From positions 1 through 64,000 of the forward strand of contig MEDY01000184.1 in assembly GCA_001724265.1 (NCBI GenBank): 64,000 bases of DNA, written 5' to 3'. Position 1 is the first letter of the stretch. Each line of letters begins with the position of its first letter. This document shows positions 20,732 to 60,721 of the stretch, piece after piece. A program made the translations under genes and the position numbers. The notes under the pieces were generated by a model. The model saw nothing but the letters and a program-made list of their open reading frames with translations, ran no database searches and had not been told where the DNA came from. The stretch is from Rhizaria sp. SCN 62-66 (Eukaryota).

Positions 20732-20784
<53 letters not shown>

Positions 20785-23674: not shown

Positions 23675-24390
23675 GCGGAAGCGCTGCAGTGGGCAAAGTG
23701 CAAAAGGACGTGGAATATGTAGAAAAGAGTGTTAGATTTCAAATAGACTTTGTGCGCCGCCACGGCGCCTCTTGGAACGCTCAGGGTCGTTAACCTGATC
23801 CAGACAACACAAAGCACAATCATCTTCCTCAGAGGAGAATCCTCGTCAGCGTATGCTAGGACCCGCGCGAATAGAAATACCAAGCAGCGTAAGACCCTAC
23901 AATTTCATTCTTTCCACTCTCGGCCGCGTCTTCAGCCTCCCACACACTCCACTCGTATCGCCCCTAGGCTCATCACGGGGCGCCAGCCAGCCAGCCACAC
24001 TCTCACTCTCCGTCCGCTCATCTTCGATTGCAAGCCGCCTGGTGACTGGACTGACCGGCCGACCGACCGTGGGCTGGCCACTTGGCCCACCACAAAAAAC
24101 ATTTGGACCACAGAGCTATGGGGGCGAGTGCGAAAGGATTAGCTGACAGGCGTGGTCTCCGTTAATTGGAAATAAAAGTGAATTGAGGTTACTGGTCGTC
24201 ATATTTATACTTAGTGAATTATTTCATTCCGCTCCAATTGCATGTTTTGTGTCACAGGTCGTCCCCCCTTTGTTCGACTTGGGATCTCACTTTCTCTTTA
24301 TCCCTCCTCACCCTGTCTGTGTGTCTGCTCCCTCACAACAACCTTCTCCGCTGATCTATCATGTGTTGCGTTGCTTTGTACCTAATAGTC

Positions 24391-25177
24391 ATGTCGTCTG
24401 AAGCGCCGCACGACGAGGCCGACTTCGGCCTGAGTCCTGTCCCGGCTGCTGCTGAGGCGACAGACGCCTCCAAGCAGACAGACTCTGCTTCTGCCTCGAC
24501 GGCTGCAGTTGCTGTTGTGGCTGGTGACGAGGCTCCCGCGAAGCCGCTGTTTGAGATTCAGCAGTGGAACGCTGTTTGTCTCTGGGGCTGGAAGCTCTCT
24601 GCTGAGGTTTGCGCTATTTGTACGTCCCAAGAAATGTCGAGCAACAATTTGGAAGAACTCCTCATCGTTCAGCTCATTTGTTGGTCTACAGCTTCAACAC
24701 AAGTGCAAACCTGAAAGGTATCACGTCATATTTAGCTATCTTTTTTTATATCTTGTACTCATCTCTTTTCACTCTGTTTCTCTGTCATGGTTTGTGACCA
24801 TCTCTTCCTTGTAGGCCGTAACAACCTGATGAGTGCATGCATCGACTGTCAGCTCAGCACCACTCTGTCCAACAAGTACACGTGCACCGTTGCATGGGGC
24901 AAGTGCCAGCACGTGTTCCACCTCCATTGTATCTCCAAGTGGCTCCAGCGCCGCCATGTACGTCCTAGAAATACTGTGGTTCATATCCGTGTGCTCATCA
25001 AACGACACTCTCTTGCTCTGTGTGGATCTTGCCGATGTGTATTGCCTTTATCATTTTGAACTTGATTTCACTCATTTTGAATGTCTCTTTATGTTTTCGC
25101 CTTGTTTTGCGCTGTTTTAGACTTGCCCTATGGACAACCTGCCTTGGGAGAGTTACGCTAGTATGGTTGGCAAGTAA
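24391..25177 (+). CDS. RBX1: RING-box protein (cullin-RING ligase subunit); exons 24391-24619, 24815-24957, 25121-25177
   Basis: Spliced product WNAVCLWGW...CAICRNNLMSACIDCQ...[35 protein letters not shown]; two GTACGT...TAG introns; TAA stop. Confidence 0.9.
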
Positions 25178-26874
25178 ACAATTGCCTTTTTCGAGATCAA
25201 CTAAAACGTTATCACATCAACGTAATACCCACAGCAATGAACATCAACAATGTCAAACAGCAGCAACAACGAATATTTTTGAGAGCAGTAACGCTGCTCT
25301 TGTACACGCGTTAGTATGCTTTGTTTTCTGTAGATTTCAGCTCTGTTTGGATTTGTCTCTAGTTTTCTCTTCAGCCTTGTTTTTCCCATCTAGCCCGAGC
25401 TGTACCTTTGTCGTTACATAGCCGCAACATGTGTTGTAAACCAACAACAACATCACTAGTAATCTCACGTCTAGTCCTGAAGCACGTTCTACTCTTCTTC
25501 GAATGTTCTTATACGAGACCTCAACAAAAAGAGATGAAAAATAAACACATTATTGTGACAAACATCATCTTTGTCTTGAATGGTCTTCGTCGCGTTATAT
25601 AGCACTCATACAAAGATAAGTATCGTGCTTCGTAACCAAACCTGTTTCCTGTTGTGTGTATTGCACTTTGCACGCAGCTGTGTGTGTTAATGTGTGTGCC
25701 TTGCTTGCATGGCGGTGGCATGTAGTCTGGACCGCCACCACTGCCGCCTCCGCCGCTGCCGCTACTGCCACGGCTACGTACGCTAAGCGTTTGAATTTGC
25801 TATATCTTAGTGGCGGGCGGATGGCGCCTGAACACGGTTGCTGCCATATCCAGCGCAGACCTCTCGTAGTCCTGCCAGCTACACCTCGCACGCGGGTCTG
25901 GCGCCGGCCGAAAGCACAATTGCGGTATCTCAGCGCTAATACCAGCTATTTTATGCACGCTGCGCGCAATACACACTTGAAGCGCCGGCTTATTAGTGGA
26001 GCACGAGTCATTTGTGAAAACAATATTCTTCTCTCCGTTCCGGTCAGCGCGGCTCTAGCCAAATCTGCCTCTAAGCTCGATAGTAATAACACTCAACTGT
26101 CTTTTCAATTTAAGAATCGTTGGAATTTTTGTTTGTTTGAATGAGTAGAGTAAAATTGAGTTCTGACAAAAGTTGTGTGCAATTCTTTAGTTTCTTGCTT
26201 CGACAACTTCAAGAGCTCAGACACAGATCTCGGTATTCACTAGAGATATTCTGCTCTACGTCTGAGATATCACAGCATTTATGAATATAAACCAAAACCT
26301 CACATTGCTTACGTTTATTTTCGAAAACCCGCTTCTAAATACTTGTTTTCTTGTGCACAAAGCTTTCATCAACAGGGAACAGCGACAGAATGAAACTTCA
26401 GTGCTTCCATTTGCAGCTCTCTTACACTTCTCTTGTCGAACGCTTGCTGAGGCAAGCTAAAGTCTACTTGCCACTAAGTTATATTCTTATTGGTTTTTGC
26501 TCAAACTTGAGCTGTGATGCTGGTGCACTCTGTGTGTATCGCGTGATCTCCGAACTCACTTCAAGTTGCACAGCCACGACTTTGGCGACCACGGACATTC
26601 TGACATCACACACCCATGAGATTTGTGACTTTTTACTGATGTATGACGTCTAGTCCAATAACGTGTTTTGCCCCGCCCCAAGATGTTATTTCATAAATGT
26701 TGTTGCCATTGATTTTGAAAACTACGAGTGTCAGTTTTAAATCTTGCTATCTACCATTTGCAACATGGTCGTATTTTTTTAACACCTTTAGATGCTAACT
26801 TTGGCTACGAGACGAAGCAGATTAGTCTTTGTCGTATTATTGACGAAGGCTCTGGTTTTGATGTATTTGTGCAT

Positions 26875-26954
26875 GTCAACATCCTCTAGTGGTATGTGGC
26901 GTGCCTTGAAAGCTCGTGCCTTCGGGCTCGTGGGTTCGAATCCCACTGTTGACG
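26875..26954 (+). tRNA. tRNA-Ser(UGA), atypical D and anticodon stems
   Basis: Perfect 7-bp acceptor GTCAACA/TGTTGAC, G discriminator, T-arm GTGGG-TTCGAAT-CCCAC, long variable arm GCC-TTCG-GGC, anticodon loop CT-TGA-AA (anticodon 26907-26909). Confidence 0.8.
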
Positions 26955-26976
26955 TTTCTTTTTTTCTTTTTTTTTT
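26955..26976 (+). terminator. Oligo-T RNA polymerase III terminator
   Basis: Long T runs begin immediately after the tRNA discriminator base. Confidence 0.75.
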
Positions 26977-27230
26977 GTCTCGAGTCTAATTGCCGCGCTT
27001 GCTCATACCGCGGCCTGCGCCATATTTTTTTACTTCTTCCACCGTCTGGTCGCTTTTGCCAACGCGCCCCGCCCCTGACTACGAATACTGGATAGCATGA
27101 CTTTTTATTTTTGACTTGTCGTCTCTATATAACTTACAATAATCCTAGGTAACATCAATGAGCACAATATGAAATAATAAAGCTTAATCAAGCCAGCTTC
27201 CAACAAGCTTCTCAATGATCTGTTGTGCGC

Positions 27231-35399: not shown

Positions 35400-38300
35400 A
35401 TGCACCGGTCGTCGTTTACTATGGCGTCGCTTGGTGGCACCGCAATCGGCCCCCGATGGTCCACAGCGACCCAAACCGCACGAAAACGTAAGCAGACTTT
35501 TCGCCATCCATCGTTTCACCCTCAGTTACTCTAGGTCTCATTCACCCGTACTCGGCTGCGCTCACCTCGCGATGTTTTCATATTTTTTATTCCTCTTTAG
35601 CGACCGTGTCGCCGTTTGCGGCGCCCATATCGGCACGCGACATGCTCCCCCGGCCCCCGCCGCAAGCGCGCAACGGCTCACTCTACGACGCCTACTGCGC
35701 TTCCAACGGCGCAGCGAGCGCCCGCGGCGGCCGGGCTGGCGGCGGGCCCCCATTCATACTGATTGACCTGCCACTCGACAGCAGCCCGGGCCAGCCCGGC
35801 GCGAGCAGCGACAGGAGCCGGAGCAAGCAGCGCCCGCCGCAGTCACAATTGCCGTCCTCGCGGCCCACAGCAGCGGACGTGTCCAAGTCAGCACAGCGAT
35901 CCGGCCGCCGCACTGGTGACGGCAACGGCGACGATGACGACGGTGGTGGTGACGGCAACGACTCTGGAGCTCCACGTCGCAAACGCTCGCGCTCTTAGTC
36001 GCGCTCTGAAGCCAAAGGCGGCAAGGGCGACGCATCTGCGAAGGCGACGCCGAAGACGCCAGAGACGCGCTCCCGCGCCCGCGCCCGCGCCCGCGCGAGA
36101 TCGCGCTTGCGCACCGGCCCCCGCGCCACCGGTCTTGCGTACGCTGAGTCACGCTCGCGCTCGCGCTCTCGGTCGCAGTCGCACGATCGGTCAAAGCAGC
36201 CTCAACAGCAGCAGCTGCAGCAGCAGCGGCTGCCGCGGCCGCACAGCGCGCCCGCGAGCGGTGCGCGGCTGGCGCACCAGGCGTACGTGCGCGTGCAGGC
36301 GCAGCAGCGGCACCGCGCCGTGCTGCGCCGCCTGCGCTCGGCCGCCCCGCGCGCCGCCGCAGACTCGGCCGCGGTCGGCGCGGGGAATGTCACCGCGCGG
36401 TCCGCCGTCGCGCCCGCCATGCGGCTCCACTTCCAGCACCAGCTGCTTGCCGCGCGCGCCGCGCGAGAGGCCGCCGTCGAGGTTGACAACGGCTGGATCC
36501 AGCGCAGGCTGCTCGCCATCGCGCGCAGGCCGTCCAACTACAGCTCAAATAATAACATCAACAACATCAGCTATGACAATGCTGCTGATGCTGCGCCTGC
36601 GTCGGCGCGCGAGTCGTGGCAGCGCGTGTGGGCCTCGGCGGCGGCCGCGGCGGCTGCGGCGGCATCGGCGCGCGCCTCGGCCCAGGCTGCCGCAGAGGCT
36701 GAGGCCGAGGTCCGGCGGGCTCGCGCCGCCGCGCCCCGGCCCAAGCCCAAGCCGCGGGCGGCGTCGGCCCCGCCGGGCGGCCGCGGGGGCAAGGGCAAGA
36801 AGGGCAAAAGGAGCAAAAAGGCGTGGAATTTTGCTGCGGGCGCGCCCCCGCCGTCTGCGCGCAAAGCCTCGGGCTCCAAGAACAACACAGCCTCGACAGA
36901 TGTAACCGGTGCTGAGGCTGATGGCGACGCTGACGGTGATGGCGATGACAAGCAAGACCAGGACCAAGAGAAGAAACGCTCTCGGTCGCGGTCGCAGTCA
37001 AAGGCCCTCCCGCGGCGGCCGCAGTCAGCTCCTCCAGGCTCGAAAAACCAGGACAGCAAGATCAAGTCCAGCGTCACGGAGAAGGACGATAAGTCGAGTG
37101 CTCGGGCCAGCGCCAGCGCCCGTGCGATAGCGGGCGGCAGTGCGAGCGTCCGCGGCCGCAGTCGCAGCGGCGGCGCGGGCGGTGGCGCTGCGCCGCTGCA
37201 ACGGCCGCCGTGGTCACTCAAGGGCGCGGTGCCGCTGACGCCCGCGACGGAGCGCCGCCGCCTGCGCTCAAAGTCGCGCTCTCAGTCGCGCTCACATTCG
37301 CGGCCACAGCCGCTGTCACGGCAGCAGTCCTGCGGCGGCGACCATGCCGCGCATGCGACCAGCGGCTCGGCAGTGACTATAAAGCGCGCGCCGTACCTCT
37401 GCCCCAACAGCGCGCGCCGTGCCGCGTTCGCCGAGTCGACGGCACGGCTGAACCTGGCGCTCGCGCAGCGCCTCGCCAAAGTCAAGGTGAGTCACAATAT
37501 AATCTTAATCTATTTGAGATATAGTCGTTCAACTCTGTTTCGGGTAAAATCTTTACGATCTCACATTCTATTCCTCTCTATTTTTTTTTATTTTTTTGCA
37601 CCACAGCCCTCATATTCTTTCTCTGCACGCTCGCCATCAGCCCACAGCCGCAACAACAACAACAACAACAGCGCATACGTCTCCAGCACGAACAACGCCG
37701 GTGTTAGCCACCCCGGTCGCGACGCGTCCTCCGCGGCCGCGCACCGCCGCGACCCCCACGCCAGCGGCGACGACGTGCCGGCGTCCGTGCGGCAGTACAG
37801 GCGCGCCAGCGTCACCGCGCTGGCCTCCGCGGCAGAGACGCACCGGCTGCGGCGCGCCACGCTCACGGGCACCAGCGCCACCGGCGGCGGCATGAGCGGT
37901 TCGAAGAGGAGCAGCTTGAGCACCGGCGTTGCGTTGACGGGCGATGCATTGTTCCCTAATTTCCCACAACCTCAGCAGCAGCAACAACAGCAAGAGCAGC
38001 AGCAGGGCCAGCAGCAGCAGCAACAGCAGCAGTCGCGGCGGCGCTCTCGATCGCGCACCCGGTCACGGCTCCAGCCGCAGCCTTAGTCCCGGTCCGCGTC
38101 GCCCGCGTCGCCGGCGCGCGCCCCCTCCCCGGCCGCCGTGGCCGCCGCGGCCGCCGCGCGCGCGCACGCCGCCGCCGCTCCCTACGCCGCCGCCGCCGCG
38201 CCCCGCGGCGCGCGCGCTCTGTTGCGGCAGGTTTCTGCCGCCCGTGCGCGCTGCAACGACGACACGCGCCGCAGCCGCAGCAGCAGCCGCAGTCAAAGCC

Positions 38301-38582
38301 ACAGTCCAAGTCGCGGCGGCCGCCCCGGCACGGCTTGTGGCGACACCGCTCTGAGCAAGGGCGACGACAAGCCCCCCGCCGGCAAGAGCAAGGGCCGGAG
38401 CCGGAGCAAGAACCGCGGCGCGAGTCGCAACGCAGGCGGAGGCAGAGCGGCTGTGGGCGGCGGGCGGGCGCGGTGCGCGGTCCTGGCCCCGGCGCCGCCG
38501 CCCGCGCCGCGGCCCAGCGCCAAGCCCGGGGTGCCCGTGCAGCGCGCGCACACGAGGCACGCCACACAGCGCTCGGCTCAAT

Positions 38583-38628
<46 letters not shown>

Positions 38629-39406
38629 GCAGGAGCAGAGCGGCGGTGCGCAGTATAACAAGTACATCGACGACGCAAGCCGCAGCCGCAGTTGCAGTCG
38701 CGCACGCGCGATTGCAGGTGCTGGGCCGGGTGCTGGAGCTGGGTTACGCCGAGGGCAGTCACGGGCGCGTGCGAATGCTCCAGGTCCCGTCGAGTCGCTG
38801 CTCGACTCTCTCACTCTCGCAGACGCGAGCAGCACGAAAAACAAGTCACGGCGGCCCCACGCTATGAGTCGCCTCGCATACCCCGCAACAGCTGCTGCTG
38901 CGAGTAGTAGCCGTCCTAACCCCGCACCTTCGCTTGTGTCCGGCTGGTCCCAAAGCTTTGATCACCGTTGTTCCGGCAACGATCAGGATGACCGTAACGG
39001 CGGCGGTGGCGGTGGCGGTGGCGGTGGCGGTGGCGGTGGCGGTGGCGGTGACGGCGACTCGTGGGGCGGCCCGCCGCTGCGCAGCGCGCGGCTCGGCGCG
39101 CTGCGGCCGACAGGAGCGGGGCAGGGCGGCCGGGTGGGCCGGCGGCCCAGCGCACGTGCTGACTCAATCAGCGCGACGCTGCCCGCCCCGCTCATCAGCA
39201 CCACTCCTGCTGGCAGCAATGTGGGCGGTGGTGCTGGGTGGGCTGACGAAGCCGGCGCGCTTGCGCGCGCGCTCAACGGCAACAACAACGCAGCCGGCGC
39301 GCAGCAGCGGCAACAACAACAACAGCAGCAGAGGCCTGCGTCGCGCGTGAGGTCGATGGCGACTGCGCGCAACGACCCGGGCACGTACAGTGTGTCCATG
39401 GGCTAA
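35400..39406 (+). CDS. CFAP97/KIAA1430-domain-like low-complexity protein with three in-frame TAG codons; exons ~35400-35487, 35601-37486, 37607-39406 (start uncertain)
   Basis: ORF-track pieces 35606, 36107, 38138 and 38864 share one frame and are separated only by TAG (35996, 38084, 38582). CFAP97-like motifs AREAAVEVDNGWIQRRLLAI and NSARR...RLNLALAQRLAKVK|PSYS; TAA stop. Confidence 0.72.
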
Positions 39407-39823
39407 TCGATGCTCATATACAATGTTTTAGGATCTATTTAGTTTAGTATTTGTCCTCAATTTTCCCAAGTTTATCATCGTTACATTAGCAGCCACGTAG
39501 TACGCACATGACAACAAGAGTGAGTAGTACGCGATCAATACATTATTCATAGCTTTTCCAATCAAAATAACAATCATAAATGTACCAAATCACACAAGTT
39601 CGTTAATATTTATTAATTGTTTGCATTGTTGTTATATTTGCTTTTGTAGTCCGTCATCGCCTTCACAGGAAGTTGGTGTTCATGCAAGGACATATGATAC
39701 TTCGCTCGCCACAAACTTCAAGTGCCTTGTTCATGTATGTATGTAAGCACCTCATTTTATGCGCCCTTCAAAGTACATTGCTCGAACATAAAAGCAATCG
39801 ATCGATCGCGCGCGCTTGCTTGC

Positions 39824-40810
39824 TTACTCATCGCGGAAGAAGGGCTTGCCGACCTCTCCGTCGAAGCTGTAGGGGTTGAGCGAACGGCGCTGGGGCGTAA
39901 CGGCGAGCAGGCTCTTCATGTCATCCTCGTCAAGCTTAAGCTTGAGCGCGTCGAGGTTCTGCTGCACGCGCACGGGGTTGCTGGTGCGCGGAATGACACC
40001 GCGGCCCAGCTCGATGTGGAAGCGGATCGCCACCTGCGCCGGCGTGCAGCCGTGCTTGGCGGCCACGGCCTGCACCGCAGCGTTGCCGAACAGGTCCAGC
40101 GGGGGCTGCCCGTCGTCGGACGGGTTGGCGTTGAAGGGGGAGTAGGCCGTTATGGCGACTTTGCCCTTGCCGTCGGCGTCGCGGCCGGTGACCTCGGCCA
40201 TCTCGGCCTCGAGAGCGACCTGGTTGAAGTACGGGTGCGACTCGACCTGGTTCATCACCGGGTAGTGCTTCTGCACAGAGTCCCAGACCTGCTTGAGCTG
40301 CGCGGCGGAGTAGTTCGAGACGCCGACGGCGCGCGCGAGCCCGGCCTCGACGACCTGCTCCATGCCGCTCCACGTCTCGGCGAGAGAGCAGGGGTACAGC
40401 GCAATCGCACCGGACTCCGTCTTGGCGGGCACCAGCGGCGTCGCGCTGGGCTGCCAGTTGGTGGGCCAGTGCACAAGGTAGAGGTCGACGTAGTCGAGAC
40501 CGAGGCGCTGGAGCGAGGCGCGGCACGCGGGCACCACGGCGTCGGGCGCGTGGTCGGTGTTCCAGACCTTGGTCGTCACGAACAGCTCCTCGCGCGTGCA
40601 CAGACCGTCCTTGATGGCGCGCGCAATCGCGCGGCCAACGGCCTCCTCGTTGCGGTAGATCGAGGCGGCGTCGATGTGGCGGCAGCCCTTGGCGATAGCG
40701 AGGTAGACCATCTCATCAGCCACATCGCCGGCGAGCTGCCAGGTGCCGAAACCGAAGCAAGGCATCTTCTGGCCGGTCGCAAGGGTCACAAACGGGGTTG
40801 CGGCGGACAT
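39824..40810 (-). CDS. Aldo-keto reductase
   Basis: GFGTW, RHIDAASIYRNE, REELFVTTKVW, DYVDLYLVHWP, AVGVSNY, NQVESHPY; catalytic D/Y/K/H present; TAA stop. Confidence 0.95.
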   Translation of the reverse strand: MSAATPFVTLATGQKMPCFGFGTWQLAGDVADEMVYLAIAKGCRHIDAASIYRNEEAVGRAIARAIKDGLCTREELFVTTKVWNTDHAPDAVVPACRASLQRLGLDYVDLYLVHWPTNWQPSATPLVPAKTESGAIALYPCSLAETWSGMEQVVEAGLARAVGVSNYSAAQLKQVWDSVQKHYPVMNQVESHPYFNQVALEAEMAEVTGRDADGKGKVAITAYSPFNANPSDDGQPPLDLFGNAAVQAVAAKHGCTPAQVAIRFHIELGRGVIPRTSNPVRVQQNLDALKLKLDEDDMKSLLAVTPQRRSLNPYSFDGEVGKPFFRDE

Positions 40811-41612
40811 ACAACAAAACTACCAAGATGGAATACATTGACAGGAGTGAGAGGTGAGAGATAGATCGACGGAGGGGGAAGTTCAGAAGCAAGTTCGCGA
40901 TGGTTTCGGTGTCATAGGAATTAAGATGAAGTGCCCTGTCGATATAACGAATGATCAAGACATATAATTTTATATAAATAATTAAATGTTAGTATTTTAT
41001 CAAAGCAAACGGGTTTCGAAACAAATGACGATCAAACACGCTCAGGTTATCGTTTTGTTTTGGATTGCACCAAAGATCTGCAAGATGTGCTCACGTCACT
41101 GTCACCCCGTCACCGTCACCGTCACCGTCACGTCGCCACTACCATCGACGAGTTTATAATGACTTACAGTGAGAGTAAACAGAAAAGAAACGAGATTTTA
41201 AGGTTGTTTGTGTTTTATTGATAAAGGGTTGTGGTGCATAAATACAAAAAAAAAAGACTGTACCGAGCCGTCCTTGTCCGTTCAAAACCGCCGGCGTCAA
41301 GGAAGCAGCCCGAGTGAAATACAGGGGAGAGCACCTCATACTAATTGTTGTTGCTAAAGTAGCGTCTTTGGAGTTTGGTTATCGAGTGTTTGTAAAGGGT
41401 GGAGTGACTGTTGCTGTCATAGTGTAGCTGCAGTCAATCTCACAGAGACGCGCGCGCGAGAGCGCACGCGAGAGCGAGTGTGGGCGAGAGCGAGTGTAAG
41501 CTCGAGCGTAAGCTCTTTGTTGTTCGCCATTATGTAACTGTTTCAGCTCCCGTCAAGCGCTCTCTTCCGCGGCGTCTCGCCGCCCCACCCGCCGCGCGAC
41601 CCACGGCCTCAC

Positions 41613-42658
41613 TCACATGGCGTAGTGGGCGATAGCCTCGAAGATGACGTAAGCGCTGACGCCGGCCGTGGCGAGCACGACGAGGCGCGCGGGCACCTCG
41701 CTGGGGCGCTGCACGGCGGGCAGCGCGGAGGAGTTGGCGACGTGGTGCAGCGTGAGGGCGTCCGTCTGCGTCAGCGTGCTGCGAGCGAAGCCGATGTCGG
41801 GCTTGGTCACGGCCGAGGCGGGGTAGGTGACCGACACCGTCACGTCGCGCGGGCTGTGGAAGAGCGCCGAGATGGGCGTGTCGGCGGCCAGAGGCACGTC
41901 GTTGACAGAGAACTTGACCACGGGCACCACGGGGTTGAAGAGCTGGAACGCGGCGTCGGGGATGCGCGAGTTGCCCGCGGCCTGCCACGAGGACTGCATC
42001 TCGCCGGCGAGAGCGGAGAAGGTGGTGTCGAGCGGCACGACGATGTCCTTGACGGTCAGCGAGTCAGACTTAGAGCCGGCAGGGGCTGTGTGTGTGTGAG
42101 AAGCGCGGGGTGTGGGAGCACATGGGGGAGGCAAGGGGGAAGGAGAAGAGGTCAAGGTGAGGTTACAGTGAGAAATGAAACGGTTCGAGACAGATAGCGA
42201 GTCACATGTGAAAGGGAGTTGAGGCTTCTTGTTTACGTACGCTTGAAGAACATGCGAAAGGTCAGGGCAACGACGGGGGCACTGCCGACAGCGTCAGCCT
42301 TGGTGGCGTAGTGGCGGAACATCATGATGTTCGCGAGGCGAGGGGTGGAGATGAGATTGCCATCGGACAGGATGGGAGTCTTGGTCACCTTGCCGCCCTC
42401 AGCAAGGAACTTCTCGCGGGCCTCCTGCACAGGCTTGATGTTCAGGCCGTAGCGCTCGTCCATGACAACGTCGTAGGTGCCAAAGACGTGGGCAATCGCA
42501 TCGTCGTGAGGCAGACGGGGCATGGTCGTCTGGAAGCTCGCGCGGGCGAGGGGCGCCTTGAGAACGGGAGAGACGACGCTGGTGGCAGAAGCAGTCATGC
42601 CAGACACCAGAGACTTGGCACCGCCAACGCGACTAAAACGCTGAATAGCAGAACGCAT
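41613..42658 (-). CDS. Unknown, probably mitochondrial membrane-anchored protein; exons 42658-42241, 42085-41613
   Basis: Presequence-like N-terminus (MRSAIQRFSR...LARASF), strong codon bias, phase-1 GTACGT...CACAG intron, C-terminal hydrophobic helix LVVLATAGVSAYVIFEAI; TGA stop. Confidence 0.75.
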
Positions 42659-43454
42659 TTCGCAAACGTTTGTTTTTTCAAACCTTAAAACACGCGACCT
42701 ACGTCTCGTCTTTTACTTTTTTCTGCCACCGTTGGGCCCGTTCCGCGGCTTACTTAGCCTCGGCCACAGGGCCGAAAAAAGGAAACCCAGAGTGACCGTG
42801 AGCAGAGCTTCATTCCGCCCAAGTTTCAACGTCATAAACGCTCTATTATAAATTGACAGTGTTGCATCCTGCTATAAACATGTCTTTGAAACCTGGTTGT
42901 TTAGTTGTGTCTTCTTGTTGCACATTACCTGGCGCGATATCTTTGGAAATAAGGGCGCCCACAGTCAAGCTTGACCACAGCTGAAAGAGGTCAGACTGGC
43001 AGAAAAGTGGAGTCGAGAAACGATTAAAGGAATCGACAATTATGACCGCAAAGCTCTTTGCAATTGATGCACCCTATGTGCAATGAGTTATTTGACGTAG
43101 TATTTAAATTGTTGCGCTTGAAGCCGTCTTCTATTTTGTGTTTGACTCTGTCGGAGGAGCGCCACGTGTGAGGGTCTATCTCACCCCTTCCCTCATCGCG
43201 TGCCACTGCTGCGCCTTTTCCATCTTTGCACATTCGCTGACGACTTTCTTCACCCTATTTCCTCGCCTTTGTAACACTCCGCATTCTCTCTCACGTGTGG
43301 CTCGGCCGACGTATACGCGTTCACAGGACCAACACTCCAGTCCCAGAGCTGGTAAGACAAGCACCTTTCGTATCTCCAGCATTCCCCGCCCCCTCGCCCC
43401 TCCGCGCAGCCCCCGCTCCCCGCCCGCCCACCCTCCTCCGGCCCTGGCCGCCGC

Positions 43455-46031
43455 ATGTCCTACTCCGGTGCCGCGCCCCCCGCGATGTCGCTGACGATGC
43501 CGCTGCCGCCCAAAGGGCTCGCGGCGCAGAAGAAGGTCACGGTCACGCTCGACCCGCTCCTCGTCGCCGGCGCCACGCTCCCCGGCGCGCCCGGCGCTTC
43601 CGCCTCCGCCTCAGGCGCGGGCGGCTACGGCAGCTACGGCCACGGCGCCGGCCACGGCTGCGGCCCGTCGTCGTCGTCGTCGTCGTTGATGACTGGCGCG
43701 CCGCTGCCGGTGCCCGCGCCGCTGCCGCCGTCCGCGTACGCCGTGGCGGGCCCGCATCCGGACCTGCCGTTCATCCTCACGCTGGCCTCGCAGGAGATCG
43801 CCACGGCCGTTGACGCGTACCTCGAGACCACCGTCACGCCGCTTGTCCGCAGCGCCGTCAACATCGCCGCGGGCTTCACCATGGCCGCCCATCAGCTGCA
43901 ATAGCAGACCTCCTCATCCTCCTCTTCCTCGGCCGTTGCCGCCGCCGCCGCCGCGGCCGCGCGGCCCGTGGACCCGGCGTTGGTGGCGCAGGTGCACGGC
44001 GCCGTGCGCTCGATGGTGGCCGCGTGCCGTGCCTCTGTCGTGCCGTGGTTGCGCGAGCAGCTCGCCGAGCAGGCCGCCGCCATCGCGCGTGCCTCGCTCG
44101 ACGCGCGGCCGCTCGACGCGCGCGCGCTCGCCGCCGTCGAGAGCAACCCGTTCATGGCCTACAGCACGCCCCACCAGTACGCATACGCCGCCTCCTCGTC
44201 ATCCGGCCATGGCAGTCAGTTCGCAGGCCCTATGGCGGTGGCAGGAGGCTCGGGCGCGTCGCCGACGCTGGCGGGCGCGCGCCACATGCGCAAGCGCTCC
44301 AGCGACATGCGCGACGCGCGCGTTGGCAGCGCCAACGCCAACTTGGCCTCCAGCTCCCACTACAACGGCGGCGGCGGCGGCAACAACCTGGCGATGCAGC
44401 GCAGCAGCACGGCCTCCCCCGGCCCCGGCGCGGGCCCCAACAGTAGCAACAGCGGCGGCGGCGGCAGCGACGCGTACCGCACACTGGAGCGGCTGTGCCG
44501 CGCGGGCGACACGCAGGCGCTGGCGGACGCGATCAACGAGGCGCTGGTGTCGGCGCCCGACGCGGCGGCGGCGTGGCTGGGCCCCCAGGGCCGCGCGCGC
44601 TCCTCGCTGCTGCACGTCGCGGCGTCGCTGCGGCGGCCCGACATGTGCGCCGTGCTGGTGAATCTGGGCGCGAACCCGAACCTGGTTAACGCGCGCGGCG
44701 TCACGCCCGTGCTGGTCGCGCTCGACGCCGGCGACGCGGGCTCCGCGCGGGCCATGGCCGAGCGCGGCGGGCGGCTGCCGCGCCAGGAGCTGGCGGCCGT
44801 CGAGGCGCGGCTGGGTCGCGCGCTGGACTCCGAGCTGACCGCCGATCTGCTGGCGCCGCCCGTGGACAACGCCGCGTGGGACGCCGAGAACGCGGCCAAC
44901 CCGCCGCTGTCCTTCTCTCGCCCGCCCACCTCGATGACCGGGGCCGCGGCCGGGGCCGGGGGCGTTGCGGGCAGCGCGTCCCCGCAGCTCGGCGCCAGCG
45001 CCAACAACACCGCTGGCACCAACAGTGCGGCCGCGGCTGCGGCTGCGGCGGCGGGCGGCGTGTCTGCCGAGTACGCGCGGTCCGTGCTGATGACCGTACC
45101 GCCGACCAAACCCGCGGACGCGACGGAGAAGCAGGTGGGCAAGATGCTCGACAAGCTCGTGCGCTTCGGCGACCAGGCCACGCTCAAGACCTTCCTGGAC
45201 TCGCTCAGCACGGGCGAGAGGCTGCTGCACACGGGCCCCACGGGCCACTCCAAGTCGACGCTGCTCTTCACGGCGGCGTGGAACAAGCGCAGTGACTTGT
45301 TCGATTTACTTATCGCGGGCGTGGGCGTGGACGTGAACCACCGGAACCTGCGGCGCAACACGGCGCTGCTCATGTCGGTGGAGCAGGGCGACATGGACGC
45401 TGTGGCGCTGCTGCTGCAGTACGGCGCCTACGCCACCGAGCGCGACCTTAAGGAGCTGGAGGCGCGGACCGGCCACGGCTGTGATCCCGCGATCGTGGCG
45501 CTGCTGATGGACAACTACAAGTCGCGCAAGGCCATGGGCGAGTTCGACAAGGTCAAGGACGAGAAGGCTACGGTGACGGCGTCCAACGTCAAGAAGGCGC
45601 TGGCGGCGCTGTCGCCCGAGAAGAGCGCGTTCCGGCAGGACATCCACAAGGAGCTGGAGCGGCACGTCAAGTTCGGCGACCCCGCCAAGGTGCGCGGCAT
45701 GCTCGAGGCGCTTCCGCAGGCCTCGCGCGACGCTCATCTGGGCCCCGTGGGGATGTCCAAGTCGACGCTGCTCTTCACGGCGGCCTGGCACCGACGCGCC
45801 GACATGTGTCGCGTGCTGGTCGAGTGCGGCGCCGACGTGACGCACCGCAACGTGCGGCAAAACAGCGCCGTGTCGATGGCCATCGAGCAGCACTCGCTCG
45901 AGACCGTCGAGGCATTGCTTGAGACCGGCGCCGACAGCTCGGCGCAGGAGGTGCGGGAGATTGAGAAGCGGACGAACAAGCCCGTGCCAGAGCAGATCAC
46001 CGACGCGATCTTCGACTGGTGCGGCAAGTAA
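43455..46031 (+). CDS. Ankyrin-repeat protein with three tandem modules and one in-frame TAG (43902-43904)
   Basis: ORFs 43455-43904 and 43968-46031 are in one frame, joined by CAA TAG CAG and 21 sense codons with no AT-rich intron; ankyrin motifs SLLHVAA/TLLFTAA...GADV..RN; TAA stop. Confidence 0.82.
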
Positions 46032-46575
46032 GGCGAGACTGACGCTGACGCTGATGCTTTTTGCGACTGAAATCGTCTTCTTGCAGTGGCCCAAGTCTAC
46101 AAGTCTTTCCTTGTGTCTGTCTTTTGTTTTTGTTGTGATTGTCGTTGCAATTGTGATTTCTCACCAGTGCTTTCGCTGTCCTTTTCTCATCCTTGTTTAT
46201 CGAGTTTGTTTTCCACGACGGAGTTGTGTCACGCTGCTGTTCCGTTGCGTTGTTTCTCTACAGCGCATCGACTGCAGTAACTCCCCCAACCCCACATTCC
46301 TTTTGTAAATGATAACTTTTTTTTTTCACACTGGTCATACTTTGACCACATATCAAGAGGTAGAGACGTTGCTGTTTACCATTGTTACAGTTTACAGTGG
46401 CGCTCTCTGCGTATCCACCCTTGCTCTGTCTTGTGGTCTTACTTGTTTGTTTACCGTAATCAATACAAACTCCGTCAATTGCACTCTGAGCGCCGATTTT
46501 GATTAATTCAACTTAATTTGTGCTCCTCTTCAATTTTGTTTTCACTATAGAAGTGGTCTTCGACCTCTATTCCCC

Positions 46576-48081
46576 ATGTCCCTGGTACGTACTTACTCTC
46601 ATCTTTCTATCCACTTACCTTCAGCTCTTGTTGCTTCATACTCACACCTATACACTCTTTTTTTGTTTGTGAGCAGAACTACTCTAAATGGGACGTTATT
46701 GAGGCTGCCGAGCGCGAGGATGAGGAGCGCGAAAAGGCCATTTTACGCGAAAAGACCCGTCTTAAGTACGTCTCACTCTCCAGCTCTCTCTTAAGAGCTT
46801 CTCCTTCTATTTAGACGCGCCTCTCTATAATCCTCACTATGAACCTGCTACGCTACTTTATCCATGCTCCTTCACTTGTATTGTTTGCTATCGCCATCTT
46901 TTCGGCCCGCCGCAGGTACATGTCTGAGCAGGCGGAGCGGCAGCGGCAGTGGCAGGAGCGCAACCCTGGCGCGGCGCCGCCAGCGCAGCACTCCGTGTGC
47001 GGCTGCAGCCCCGCCGCGTTCCAGCTCGCCGTAGAGGCGCAGTAGCAGGCCGCGAGCGCCGACACAGGCAGCGGTCACGGCCACGGTCACGGCCACGGTC
47101 ACGGCCACGGTCATGCCCACGGTCATGCCCACAACAGCCATGATCACGATCACGATCATGGTCACGGTCACGGTCACGGTCACGGTCATTCCCATGGCCC
47201 TGCGACCGCGCCCGCGCCTGCGCCTGCGCATCTTGCTGCGACTAAGGCCGAAGCTGCCACAGCCTCAACTGCTTCCAAGGCTCCTGTCCCTGCTCCTGCT
47301 GCTGCAGCTGCAACTGCTGCCTCAGCTGCTCCAGCTTCATCGCCCGCAGCGCGCAACGCCCCTGCAGCGAGCAACGGCACCAGCGCAGCGGCCGCCGCTT
47401 CGAACCCCCTGGGCTGCGGGTTTGCGGGCGTCGAGCAGCTGCAGGCGTTCATCGACGCCGCGAAAGCTGCGGCTGCGAACAACAACAGCAGCAAAACCAA
47501 GAGTAACAACAAGAATGCAGTTAGCAGCAGCAGCAGCACGGCTGTAGCAGCAACTGCGACAAATGCGGCTACCACTACTGCTCCCGCCGCCGCGCCTGCA
47601 GCTGCGCCTGCGGCCAACAGCAACAGCAGCGGCAGCGGCAGCGGCAGCGGCAGCGGCAGCAGTAGCAGTAGCAGCGCGGCACAGCCTGCGTTTTCGTCGC
47701 TGCCGCTGAGCGAGAAGAACCTCCGCAAGCGTGTGGGACTAGCGGCCGCGCTCGCCGACGCGCGGGACCACCTGGCCGCCGCCGCGCTGCACCCGCAGCT
47801 GCAGCTGCGCGCTGAGACAGCAGCAACAACAGCAGGCACAACCGCGACCGCGACTTCTGCGACAGCAGTTGCTGAGAGCGAGACAGTGAGGCCTCTGTGG
47901 CTGCCGCGGCCTCTCTGGGCCGCCCTTGCCCCTTCGCTCTCATCATCCTCAACATCATCAACTGCAACAACAACTGCAACAGCTGCAACAGAAACAGACT
48001 CGGCGGCAAAGCTAACGCCAGCGCCCGCGTCGCCGTCAGCGCCCGCGCCCGTCAAGCCCGTCAAGCCCTCCGTCTCTGCCT

Positions 48082-48125
<44 letters not shown>

Positions 48126-48848
48126 TCAGTGCTGGCCCTGGCGCGCTCGCCGCACCCGCCCGCGGCGTTGCGGCGCGCGGCGGGCAGCATCCTCTCGCGT
48201 GCCCAGCTCTTCGTCAACGACATCACGGGCGCGGGCGACGGCGAGGAGGGCTGGGCGCTGCAGCGGGCTGAGGCGCGGGCGTTCGCGCTCACGGCCGTTG
48301 CCGAGGCCGCGGCAGGGCAGGCGCAGGCCGCCGAGCGCGCCGCCGCCACCGCGCTGGCCATCGACGTCGACTCGGCGCGCGCGCTGGCACTTTGGGCGGA
48401 CCAGGGACGTCTGCCAGGAAGTGACTGTGAGCAGCAGCAGAGTGACCGTGAGCCGCAGCGGCAGACACAGCAGGGACCTGAGAGTGGTGATTCGTCGCCG
48501 CTCGTGCTGCTGTTCAGCCGGTCTGCGGCGCGGGGCGAGCCCCTCTGCGCGCGCGCCTTCGCCCGCCACCTCAAAGCCGCCGCCGCAGCCTCCGCAGCAG
48601 TTCCACAGAGCGGTCCGGAGGGCCCTACCACCAGCGAAAGCGACGGCGAGTCCGAGACCGAGGAGGGCGCGGCAGTGGGCGGTATGGGCCGCCCCTCGGC
48701 CCACTGGGTGCCCGTGGCGGCCGCCGACGTGCTGGGCTCCGCGGCGACGGCGCTGCTGGCGCGGGCCGAGGCGCTGCGGTCGCGCGGGTAGCCCGCCAAG
48801 GCGAGGGCCGCGCTGGCAGAGGTGCTTGCGCTGGCCCAGGCCGGCGTT

Positions 48849-48885
<37 letters not shown>

Positions 48886-49410
48886 GCAGTAATAATACTG
48901 GTGATGCAAGCAGTACGAGTGCGTTGGCGGAGACGGGGGAGCTGGTGCGACTGTGGGTCTGGGTGGACGGTGCAGAGGCTGCGCTGCTGCGCAAAGAGAG
49001 TACGTCCATCGAACAATCTATATCTTGGTGATTTACGTTATGATCTGTATCGTGCAATGTGGAGGGATGTGAAATTTCTCATCAAATGTGATGATGAATG
49101 ACACTATTAGTTGACATGAGGATTGACTAGGGATTTCGATTGTTTGATGGAATTATCCACATATTTCTCACTTTGTATTGCCTTTTTGTATCATTGCGCA
49201 TTCTCCCTTTCACTCACACCAACTGCTCAATTCACCGCTCACTGCTCACCGCTCACTGCACACACCGCACTGACAGTGGCCGCTAGCGCGCGCGCCCAGT
49301 CCCGGCGGCTCGAGAGGGAGGCCAGTACCGCCGCCAAGCGCGAGGGCGCCATGGCCCGCCGTATGGCCGCCGCGCTCAGGGCCGCCGCCGCAGCGGACGA
49401 CAAGAGCTGA
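46576..49410 (+). CDS. YSKWD-motif, His-rich, TPR-like protein with two in-frame TAG codons; exons 46576-46584, 46677-46765, 46916-48999, 49277-49410
   Basis: Three GTACGT introns with consistent phases (0, 2, 1) give MSLNYSKWDVIE...; exon 3 is open except TAG at 47043 and 48789; TPR-like LLARAEALRSRG*PAKARAALAEVLALA; TGA stop. Confidence 0.75.
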
Positions 49411-49501: not shown

Positions 49502-49933
49502 TCACTCGCTGCTGGCAGCGGGCTTCTCGTCACCGCCTTCCTTCGCAGGGGCAGCGGTGGCAGCAGCGGGCGCGGCAGCGGGAGCAGCAGCGGGAGCAGC
49601 AGCGGCAGCGGGCGCCGGGGCGGGGGCGTCGCGCTGCTGGTAGTAACCGAGCACTTTGAAAACGAATGCAGAGAGTTGGGATAACGAAGGCGTGAGAAGA
49701 GATAAGTGGGATATGTTATGAATAAGGAGTGTGGAATTGCAGTTAGCGTCGCGAAAGTGCGTCGTACCTTTGCTGGCGAGCAGGGCGAGGGCGTCCTTCT
49801 GGTCCTTGTCGAGGCTCTCCATGGGGATGGGCTCGATGATTTGAATGTCCATATCGTCGTCATCGGAGTCAGAGTCGCCAATCAAGCGCTTGGGTTGAGG
49901 CTTCTCCTCGACGTTCTCCTGTGGGGTAGACAT
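49502..49933 (-). CDS. Small acidic protein of unknown function; exons 49933-49768, 49653-49502
   Basis: 114-nt frame-preserving intron GTACGA...CAAAG; biased codons; Ala/Pro-rich tail; TGA stop. Confidence 0.7.
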   Translation of the reverse strand: MSTPQENVEEKPQPKRLIGDSDSDDDDMDIQIIEPIPMESLDKDQKDALALLASKGTTHFRDANCNSTLLIHNISHLSLLTPSLSQLSAFVFKVLGYYQQRDAPAPAPAAAAAPAAAPAAAPAAATAAPAKEGGDEKPAASSE

Positions 49934-59733: not shown

Positions 59734-60429
59734 ATGCAGCACCCCTTCATGGCTGCCCAGGGCGCTCCGTACGGCGCCCCTGCCGCGGGCGCGCCCCACC
59801 AGTCCGCTGCCGCGTACGGCGGCGGCTACCCCGCGCAGCCGCAGCCGCAGCAGCAGCCCACGTACGGCCAGCCGCAGCAGCAGTACAATCCTGCTGCCGA
59901 CGCCGCGCGCTCCGTCGTGCAGTCGCCCCCGCACGCCTCCGCGCCGCAGCAGTACCAGCAGCAGTACCAGCAGCAGCAGCCGCAGCAGCAGCCGCAGTAC
60001 GGCGCTGTCCCCGCCGCCCCCGCCGCTGCCCCTGCGGCTGGTGGTTACGCCGCGTACGCTCAGGGCATGAGTGCAGTCGACGCCGCCACCGCGGCCGCGT
60101 ACCAACAGCAGCAGGCGCTCTACCACCAGCAGCAGCAACAGCAGCAGGCCGCGCAGCAGCAGTACCAGCAGCCCCAACAGCAACCGCAGCAGTACGCTCA
60201 GCCCCAGCCTCAGCAGCAGTATCAGCAGGCTCAGCAGTACCAGCAGCAGCAGCACCATGCGCCTACCAACTTCGCGGCCGCCGTGGTCGTCCGCCGCGGC
60301 GGCGGCGCGCGCGCCCAGGCCGCAGCCACGGCGTCGTTCGAGCCTCGTGCCGATTATAGCGACTTGGACCCGCTGTCGATGGACTTCGATTACGGCCGCC
60401 GCCGCGCCGCCGAGCAGGCCGCCGCCGCC

Positions 60430-60524
<95 letters not shown>

Positions 60525-60721
60525 CCTCACAGCCCGCGGGCTACGGTACCCCGGCGCAGGCCCCCGCCGCGCAGTACGGCGCCGCGCCCACCGGCTACGG
60601 CGCTGCGCCCGCCGCCGCGGGCTATGGCGTGCCTCAGCAGGCGCAGGCGCAGCAGGCGCCCGTGGCGGCCGCGGCGCCGGCGCAGGGCGCGTACAACCCC
60701 TTCGCGCCGCGCCCCTACTAA
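59734..60721 (+). CDS. Gln/Ala/Pro/Tyr-rich protein with C-terminal NPF; apparent +1 frame break near 60523
   Basis: The frame from ATG 59734 is Q/A/P/Y-rich up to a 31-Gln tract; the same composition continues only in the +1 frame (QPAGYGTP...GAYNPFAPRPY, TAA at 60719-60721). Confidence 0.7.

Follow-up and report, generated by a model that had tools for sequence, protein, structure and literature searches.

The question raised by this locus is whether UAG still ends translation in the organism from which it comes. The window, by which the whole stretch of DNA analysed is meant, comprises 64,000 nucleotides (nt) of contig MEDY01000184.1 (assembly GCA_001724265.1, Rhizaria sp. SCN 62-66; positions 1 to 64,000 of the forward strand). 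In a first-pass annotation of this DNA, six in-frame TAG codons had been claimed inside three genes, here called A, B and C, and UAG had been proposed to encode glutamine (Gln), with UAA and UGA kept as stops. Each of the six TAGs was found where it had been placed and between the codons named as its neighbours. They are real, they lie inside coding frames and they are unlike the gene ends of the window. The organism probably uses a code of the UAG-to-Gln type with UAA and UGA as stops; since the conserved genes lack TAG, the change may be recent or UAG may be decoded inefficiently. Features are on the forward (+) strand unless marked otherwise.

Translation past an in-frame TAG in gene B

The strongest case is gene B (43455..46031), a gene of 858 codons with three ankyrin-repeat modules (Pfam) that ends in TAA at 46029. 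Its TAG (43902..43904; CAA TAG CAG) is codon 150 and is located in a variable linker rich in Q, S and A. The coding score is 0.35-0.6 on either side of it. For homology searches, residues 1-382 of gene B, with TAG read as Q, were compared with 1.84 billion representative proteins using HMMER. Three proteins were obtained at E <= 0.001, namely two pieces of gene B itself, broken at the TAG, and the orthologue P0003. Of the two self-pieces, P0002 (148 amino acids, aa) ends at the TAG and P0001 (687 aa) begins past it. Standard gene callers split gene B at 43902 into P0002 or P0004 (148 and 149 aa) and P0001, and public protein collections already contain genes of this organism that were split at TAG in this way.

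P0003 (763 aa) was aligned by BLASTP with residues 97-858, the last, of gene B at 2e-153, and a global alignment matched the N-termini of the two proteins as well. P0007 (705 aa, N-terminally cut) has 71% identity to gene B and is continuous across the TAG site. Both orthologues come from other metagenomes and are collinear with gene B on both flanks of the TAG, at 71% and 40% identity. Gene B, P0003 and P0007 share the last residue before TAA; TAA 46029 is therefore a true stop. A GT...AG pair able to excise TAG 43902 while sparing conserved residues is not present. As judged from these alignments, a conserved gene B protein must be translated past TAG 43902. An AlphaFold2 model of gene B, built on the three-sequence alignment, had a predicted local distance difference test (pLDDT) score of 35-66 around the TAG (mean 56) and was uninformative on helix packing across it. 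Contigs from polyA-RNA cover gene B at 43481-43917, 44257-44603, 44773-45058 and 45487-45816.

Termination at TAA and TGA

In the first-pass annotation 21 gene ends had been counted, 11 TAA and 10 TGA. The present census gives 19 (9 TAA, 10 TGA), so that the gene models differ slightly; the pattern, with no TAG among the ends, was the same. UAG served as terminator at 0/19 gene ends; for 18 ends, a small sample, the chance of finding no TAG is 0.15 to 0.002 if TAG makes up 10-30% of stops. The modelled genes of the window contain no in-frame TAA or TGA. TAA accounts for about half of the stops despite a guanine plus cytosine (GC) content near 0.9 at third codon positions (GC3).

The stop codon and next base at the 19 ends were TAA-G (8), TGA-G (7), TGA-A (3) and TAA-T (1). 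A purine thus follows the stop at 18 of the 19 ends (15 G, 3 A) vs none of the six TAGs (Fisher p = 4e-5), after which the next base is T, T, C, C, C and C. The pattern at the TAGs matches that at the Gln codons of genes A, B and C, where C or T comes next in 68% of 146. Base composition separates the two groups as well. In the 150 nt past open reading frame (ORF) ends at TAA or TGA, GC was 0.35-0.50 in 20/21 cases, and past the six TAGs it was 0.65-0.87 (Mann-Whitney p = 1.3e-4). With both sides taken together, the GC of the 150 nt flanks was 0.63-0.87, in agreement with the earlier statement that none of the sites lies in AT-rich DNA.

For an unbiased scan, all standard-code ORF ends with coding-like last 50 codons were collected (n = 31). 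They comprised 15 TGA, 12 TAA and 4 TAG. The four TAGs were 43902, 47043 and 48789 and one at 46812 in an intron of gene C; none of them is a true gene end. TAA and TGA are the terminators, as seen from the gene ends, the purine that follows, the drop in GC and the C-terminus of gene B.

The TAG-containing frames of genes A and C

For gene B, an in-frame UAG inside a genuine coding gene is supported by the two collinear orthologues; for genes A and C the support comes from the stops in the alternative frames, the GC of the flanks and the next base. The absence of internal TAA and TGA noted in the first-pass annotation was reproduced: the frames hold three TAGs (A), one (B) and two (exon 3 of C), and no TAA or TGA. 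The other frames over gene A, gene B and exon 3 of gene C have 4-24 stops each, and the claimed frames have the fewest.

Exon 1 of gene A (35642..37486) was started at the first in-frame ATG, 35642. It contains one TAG (35996..35998; TCT TAG TCG) and no TAA or TGA in 615 codons, compared with 7-18 stops in the other frames. Among the six frames it ranks first, alone or jointly, in almost every 150-nt window, with weak scores. A predicted AT-rich intron (37487..37606; GTGAGT...CAG, 120 nt) leads to exon 2 (37607..39406), which ends with TAA 39404-39406; among its 599 codons there are two TAGs but no internal TAA or TGA. The first of them (38084..38086; CAG CCT TAG TCC) is followed by DNA with a GC of 0.87, and the second (38582..38584) follows CAA and precedes a run of Gln codons, so that it has Gln codons on both sides. 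The drop in GC from 0.69 to 0.35 comes only past the TAA. P0006 (599 aa), a gene-caller product found on 6 contigs, stops exactly before TAG 38084.

The protein encoded by gene A is RS- and Q-rich and of low complexity. No Pfam family was found in it. The number of 5-mers common to the TAG-delimited segments was 10 in the claimed frame vs 6-10 in the other frames, and does not discriminate between them. A repeated SRSQSH motif differs at 11/15 bases, with Ser codon families switched, and may be due to chance in an S/R-rich protein. The predicted intron has a length that is a multiple of three and is stop-free in the exon frame, and may pass for coding in ORF lists. A TT indel in its poly-T tract was seen in one contig of an RNA run (X7) and in one contig of run X4.

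Gene C is predicted to begin with exon 1 at 46576..46584 (ATG TCC CTG, then a GTACGT donor) and, from reading of the sequence, exon 2 at 46677..46765. The predicted introns (46585-46676 and 46766-46915) are AT-rich, with GTACGT donors and CAG acceptors. Exon 3 (46916..48999) contains TAG 47043..47045 (CAG TAG CAG) and TAG 48789..48791 (GGG TAG CCC), with no TAA or TGA in 694 codons and 6-20 stops in the other frames; its frame is best in most windows, with weak scores. Past TAG 48789 there are 69 further in-frame codons, a GTACGT donor at 49000 that resembles the two other donors of gene C, an AT-rich stretch and a GC-rich exon in matching phase. This predicted last exon (49277..49410) ends with TGA 49408-49410, and 49408 is listed among the coding-like ORF ends. 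A TPR_2 match spanning TAG 48789 was sub-threshold (E = 0.063). The intron at 46766-46915 is 150 nt, a multiple of three, with one in-frame TAG (46812), and may also pass for coding in ORF lists. The gene C protein is of low complexity, and a long His-Gly/His-Asp dipeptide repeat (47070-47200) draws chance matches to zinc transporters.

For an isolated-stop test, 77 stops in GC-rich DNA were used (24 TAG, 7 TAA, 46 TGA). The interrupted frame was the best of six on both sides at three of the 77, all of them TAG (35996, 38084 and 43902; Fisher p = 0.028). At 38582 it was best upstream only, and 47043 and 48789 were outside the test, another stop being less than 80 codons away. The overall TAG pattern exceeds chance.

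Three further TAGs were considered and rejected. Those at 40822 and 29375 are upstream of the first ATG of their ORFs, and TAG 60742 comes after the TAA at which the better-scoring frame of its gene is closed.

The residue at TAG

Gln codons are present on both sides of three of the six TAGs (38582, 43902 and 47043) and not of 35996, 38084 and 48789. The same double flanking was counted for 107/576 Gln codons, for 9/502 Glu codons, the next highest, and for 8/1054 Leu codons. TAG 35996 is within the 20-mer TCGCGCTCT-TAG-TCGCGCTC (35987-36006), and the GC of the next 150 nt is 0.75. This 20-mer has one other copy in the window (37274..37293), with 0 matches expected by chance; the second copy of the repeat unit is in the same frame and has CAG at the matching codon. 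From the flanking codons, the CAG in the paralogous copy and the single transition that separates CAG from TAG, Gln is the best guess for the residue.

In the proposed mechanism, UAG would no longer stop the ribosome and would be translated, most probably as Gln, and genes would end at UAA and UGA, for the most part with a purine as the next base. Transitions from CAG would have produced the six TAGs, in segments of the three genes that are Q-rich or disordered and under weak constraint. UAG may be decoded by a tRNA-Gln(CUA); alternatively, a near-cognate tRNA-Gln may read it in combination with an eRF1 that is poor at UAG.

Persistence of the TAG codons in public sequencing runs

Positions 38000-47999 are present in DNA runs (bioreactor and wastewater metagenomes) and partly in RNA runs (wastewater and activated sludge) of 7 studies. 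The organism is frequent enough to have turned up repeatedly in wastewater metagenomes within ten years. Run X3, a DNA run of another study, contains 42963-43919 and 46222-47568 with 0 differences, including TAG 43902 and TAG 47043. A slightly divergent strain is represented by an X4 contig (46093-47101) with 3 differences, none at TAG 47043. The dates of these runs and of the likely source run lie between 2015 and 2025. Among the differences listed for four runs, all from assembled contigs, none was at any of the six TAG sites. Products broken at 43902 (P0004, P0001) and at 38084 (P0006) occur on 6 contigs each in public assemblies.

Contigs from polyA-RNA are unspliced over 43902 (43481-43917, 2 differences) and 48789 (48447-48839, 1 difference). 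Spliced contigs were not seen for genes A, B and C; joints were noisy from GC-rich repeats and were not used as evidence.

Evidence against a reassignment

Several observations weigh against a reassignment of UAG. One of them concerns codon use. Ten conserved ORFs (8900 codons) contain 382 CAG, 32 CAA and 0 TAG, and genes A, B and C contain 126 CAG, 21 CAA and 6 TAG (0 beside 414 Gln codons vs 6 beside 147; Fisher p = 3.6e-4). A neutral synonymous codon should not be clumped in this way, and the very Q-rich gene at 59735-60721 has 0 TAG. As had been cautioned in the first-pass annotation, no site is in a strongly conserved domain; all six are in low-complexity or variable segments. The only alignable site, TAG 43902, is opposite Phe in P0007 and a gap in P0003, not Gln; since it is in a variable linker, this alignment says nothing about the residue. 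The Gln context of the TAGs is equally expected if they are merely recent mutations of CAG. That all six are TAG is weak evidence on its own: random nonsense mutations at this codon usage would give TAG in 68-72% of cases, and P(6/6) is 0.10-0.13.

Within 50 codons of 35996, 38084 and 38582, and after 47043 and 48789, coding scores hover around zero or fall below it. In homologue searches, gene A returned only a piece of itself and gene C one His-rich chance match, and low-complexity words filled the candidate lists of both. Ten TAG-delimited segments compared with Pfam gave nothing above threshold. Neither a tRNA-Gln(CUA) gene nor an eRF1 gene is in the 64-kb window, in which the sole tRNA is Ser(UGA). 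The RNA evidence consists of assembled contigs in which the positions of the 2 + 1 differences are undisplayed, and both CAG in the RNA and carry-over of DNA are possible. On the contig of a distant relative that carries the gene B orthologue (L001), there are 0 in-frame TAGs, and five Pfam-supported genes and the gene B orthologue all end in TAA.

As evidence on TAG, L001 (1-22109) says little either way. It has 52% GC and no neighbour genes in common with the window, and is not syntenic for genes A and C. Its genes are SURF2, an ABC-type ATPase, an enoyl-CoA hydratase, ribosomal S18 and an ankyrin gene.

Of the first-pass proposal, what stands is that the TAGs are non-terminating and inside genes and that UAA and UGA terminate; a settled genome-wide reassignment is not supported, with 0/414 in conserved ORFs. 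The skew of TAG, with none in conserved genes and none at gene ends, could serve as a test case for the course of a reassignment.

Alternative explanations

A more specific form of the UAG-to-Gln reading, tentative and decidedly a minority possibility, is that the organism is in the middle of the reassignment. UAG would have been purged from gene ends, would be decoded inefficiently and would survive only in disordered, Q-rich, weakly selected segments. Decoding would be due to a weak tRNA-Gln(CUA), or to a near-cognate tRNA-Gln in competition with an eRF1 poor at UAG. If true, a stage that theories of codon reassignment postulate as intermediate would be seen in nature, in a GC-rich non-ciliate lineage.

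The main rival to reassignment is rated lower than it and is unlikely. It keeps the standard code and takes the TAGs as premature stops in dispensable or decaying genes, partly tolerated through basal readthrough by near-cognate tRNA-Gln. The confinement of the TAGs to three low-complexity genes, with none beside the 414 Gln codons of the conserved ORFs, is consistent with it, as are the Gln-stop-Gln context at three of the six sites and a codon usage at which most nonsense mutations give TAG. The frame change at a long CAG repeat in 59735-60721 could likewise be decay. In yeast, which has the standard code, Gln-flanked stops in Q-rich mRNAs are read as Gln at ~5-7%, and this amount of full-length protein suffices for normal growth of a snf5 mutant (PMC13192750, a preprint). 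The yeast case and three of the six window sites have in common a Gln-flanked stop in a Q-rich mRNA, at which tRNA-Gln competes with the release factor. In yeast, however, readthrough amounts to a few per cent and all three terminators are used, whereas no gene of the window ends in TAG; the other three window sites have no Gln-stop-Gln context, and gene A has three TAGs in series.

Premature stops would account poorly for several other results. With three stops to pass, each read through at a few per cent, hardly any complete gene A protein would be made. The six stops are in three of about 20 genes without a frameshift, a TAA or a TGA. Gene B keeps its codon bias and orthologue-level conservation over the 708 codons past codon 150. 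A signature of CpA-to-TpA hypermutation resembling repeat-induced point mutation (RIP) was looked for in genes A, B and C and was not found. TAG 43902 is unchanged in the DNA run of another study, and TAG 47043 is also present in the slightly divergent strain. The 0/19 TAG gene ends are left unexplained.

It is very unlikely that the models of genes A and C are artefacts, in which case some of the TAGs would be true stops or would lie in untranslated regions (UTRs), GC-rich introns or non-coding frames, with gene B as the lone exception. In favour of such artefacts, GC-rich DNA keeps many frames open; four of six are open between TAG 38084 and TAG 38582. Coding scores are near zero or negative close to the TAGs of A and C, and the two genes are without a Pfam family or a homologue. 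In GC3-rich genomes, antisense shadow frames mimic genes interrupted by TAG only, and have to be excluded ahead of any claim of a changed code. Where the third codon position of an antisense frame coincides with that of a real gene, the antisense frame has nearly no TAA or TGA and many TAGs; the frame antisense to CNOT1 (19056-23798, +), for example, has 34 TAG, 2 TGA and 2 TAA. A shadow frame needs a stop-free real frame opposite, as is present at CNOT1, phosphoglucomutase (PGM), XRN and B9. Over genes A and C there is no stop-free frame, so that nothing is shadowed, and the claimed frames have the fewest stops; shadow frames were therefore rejected as the source of A and C. UTRs, introns and spacers are AT-rich in this window, yet GC is 0.65-0.87 after every TAG. 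At true terminators the base that follows should be a purine (18/19), but the TAGs have T or C. The frame is kept across all six sites, which for six introns would occur by chance at about (1/3)^6, and a predicted intron and an in-phase exon follow TAG 48789.

That UAG is sense and specifies another residue (Leu as in the rhizarian exLh, Glu, Tyr or Lys) is highly improbable. Nuclear codes with UAG as Leu and UAG as Glu do exist (PMC5304391, PMC10553269), no TAG is at a conserved column, and the closer orthologue has Phe at 43902. Against this, the proportion of Gln-flanked TAGs (3/6) is nearest to that of Gln codons (107/576), with other residues at 9/502 at most, and the paralogous repeat copy has CAG; this context, equally expected from recent CAG mutations, is indirect evidence. 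It is scarcely credible that TAG is present in the DNA but not in the mRNA, through U-to-C editing or expression of a co-existing CAG allele: the differences in the polyA-RNA contigs over 43902 (2) and 48789 (1) may fall at the TAGs, and of the 4 T>C differences counted in RNA run X7 one is listed, but no listed difference is at the six sites in four runs, the strain of that study differs at scattered sites, enough to explain those letters, and U-to-C editing of such kind is not known for nuclear mRNA.

Gene content and setting of the window

GC is 60-72% across most 2-kb bins of the window, with AT-richer stretches between. Coding blocks are GC-rich, and introns, UTRs and spacers are AT-rich. 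About 20 genes are present, with introns of 92-277 nt. Eukaryotic genes among them encode an XRN exonuclease, CNOT1, a B9/MKS1-type ciliary protein, a Methyltransf_28 protein and phosphoglucomutase; further genes encode a rhomboid, a beta-eliminating lyase, TPR proteins and ankyrin proteins. The CNOT1 frame has 2953 codons and no stop of any kind. From its sequence, ORF 39824-40810 reads like an aldo-keto reductase. For the Methyltransf_28 protein, a PDB sequence search gave no match. The family is presumably that of NDUFAF7, a complex I assembly factor, and the organism is therefore probably aerobic. The source of the window, a nuclear contig, is an uncultured eukaryote of bioreactors and wastewater that is GC-rich, has introns, is ciliated and is probably aerobic.

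Comparison with known code variants

Nuclear codes in which UAG and UAA differ in meaning are described for a handful of lineages (PMC5304391, PMC10553269, PMC11687900). In Iotanema spirale (Fornicata), an anaerobic flagellate, UAG encodes Gln and UAA and UGA are stops; UAG makes up ~8% of Gln codons, and its meaning was obtained by phylogeny-informed likelihood on alignments (PMC5304391). The window resembles Iotanema in the sense reading of UAG alone, with Gln proposed for it, and in the use of UAA as a main terminator. It differs in that UAG is at 0/414 in conserved ORFs, with its meaning taken from context, and in that the organism, with its Methyltransf_28 homologue, is probably aerobic.

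In the phyllopharyngean ciliates Hartmannula sinica and Trochilia petrani, UAG is likewise read as Gln (translation table 15; PMC11687900). Common to them and the window are the reassignment of UAG only, to Gln, and a near absence of UAG from C-terminal alignment ends. In the ciliates, however, UAG occurs throughout gene bodies, as the other Gln codons do, whereas the TAGs of the window are clumped in three genes. A 64-kb contig with a GC of 60-72%, introns of 92-277 nt and about 20 genes is unlike ciliate macronuclear DNA. Its gene density, the sizes of its introns, its GC and the Methyltransf_28 protein argue against a metamonad or a phyllopharyngean macronucleus. The earlier suggestion of an independent case is plausible on the gene number, the introns, the GC and the homologue of a complex I assembly factor.

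In the rhizarian exLh, UAG encodes Leu (PMC5304391). This is a protist outside the ciliates in which UAG and UAA have separate meanings, as they would here, but the context of the window TAGs fits Gln far better than Leu (3/6 vs 8/1054 Leu codons). Codes in which UAR (UAA and UAG) is Gln occur in Amoeboaphelidium protococcarum, hexamitid diplomonads, oxymonads, ulvophytes and many ciliates (PMC5304391, PMC11687900). They share with the window a stop codon read as Gln. UAA is sense in these codes, whereas TAA ends 9/19 genes of the window including gene B; a code of the Amoeboaphelidium type is for that reason unfit here. In the ambiguous stop/sense codes of Condylostoma, Parduczia, karyorelict ciliates and Blastocrithidia (PMC5304391), one codon may both terminate and encode, a possible model if decoding of UAG is incomplete. 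The codons concerned are abundant in coding sequence and still found at gene ends, whereas TAG in the window is rare and not at ends.

Full-text literature searches, supplementary tables not being covered, did not turn up a GC-rich eukaryote from wastewater with a code of this type. UAG-only reassignment to Gln has already been described in Iotanema and in phyllopharyngean ciliates; this organism, if the reading is true, adds a case, possibly a transitional one. It would be another independent uncoupling of UAA and UAG, in a GC-rich, intron-bearing, ciliated, apparently aerobic eukaryote.

Other features of the window

The gene at 59735-60721 (+) is Q/P/Y/G-rich and changes frame within or beside a tract of over 30 CAG repeats (about 60430-60525). 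Because a miscount of whole CAG units would keep the frame, the change is either an error in the assembly join or a real frameshift. The upstream frame continues into Arg-rich, non-coding-looking sequence to TAG 60742, and the better-scoring downstream frame ends with TAA 60719.

The region 24000-27200 is AT-richer (48-52% GC) and gene-poor. It contains the only tRNA of the window, tRNA-Ser(UGA) at 26874-26955 (+), and an Rfam scan of the window gave this tRNA alone. Tail to tail with gene C is a gene for a small acidic protein (49504-49933, -) with one AT-rich intron, and ~95 nt separate its TGA from the TGA predicted for gene C. Within 41613-42660 (-), also a gene, a 155-nt intron (42086-42240) was confirmed by an RNA-derived contig that joins 42085 to 42241; spliced RNA of the organism thus occurs in public runs.

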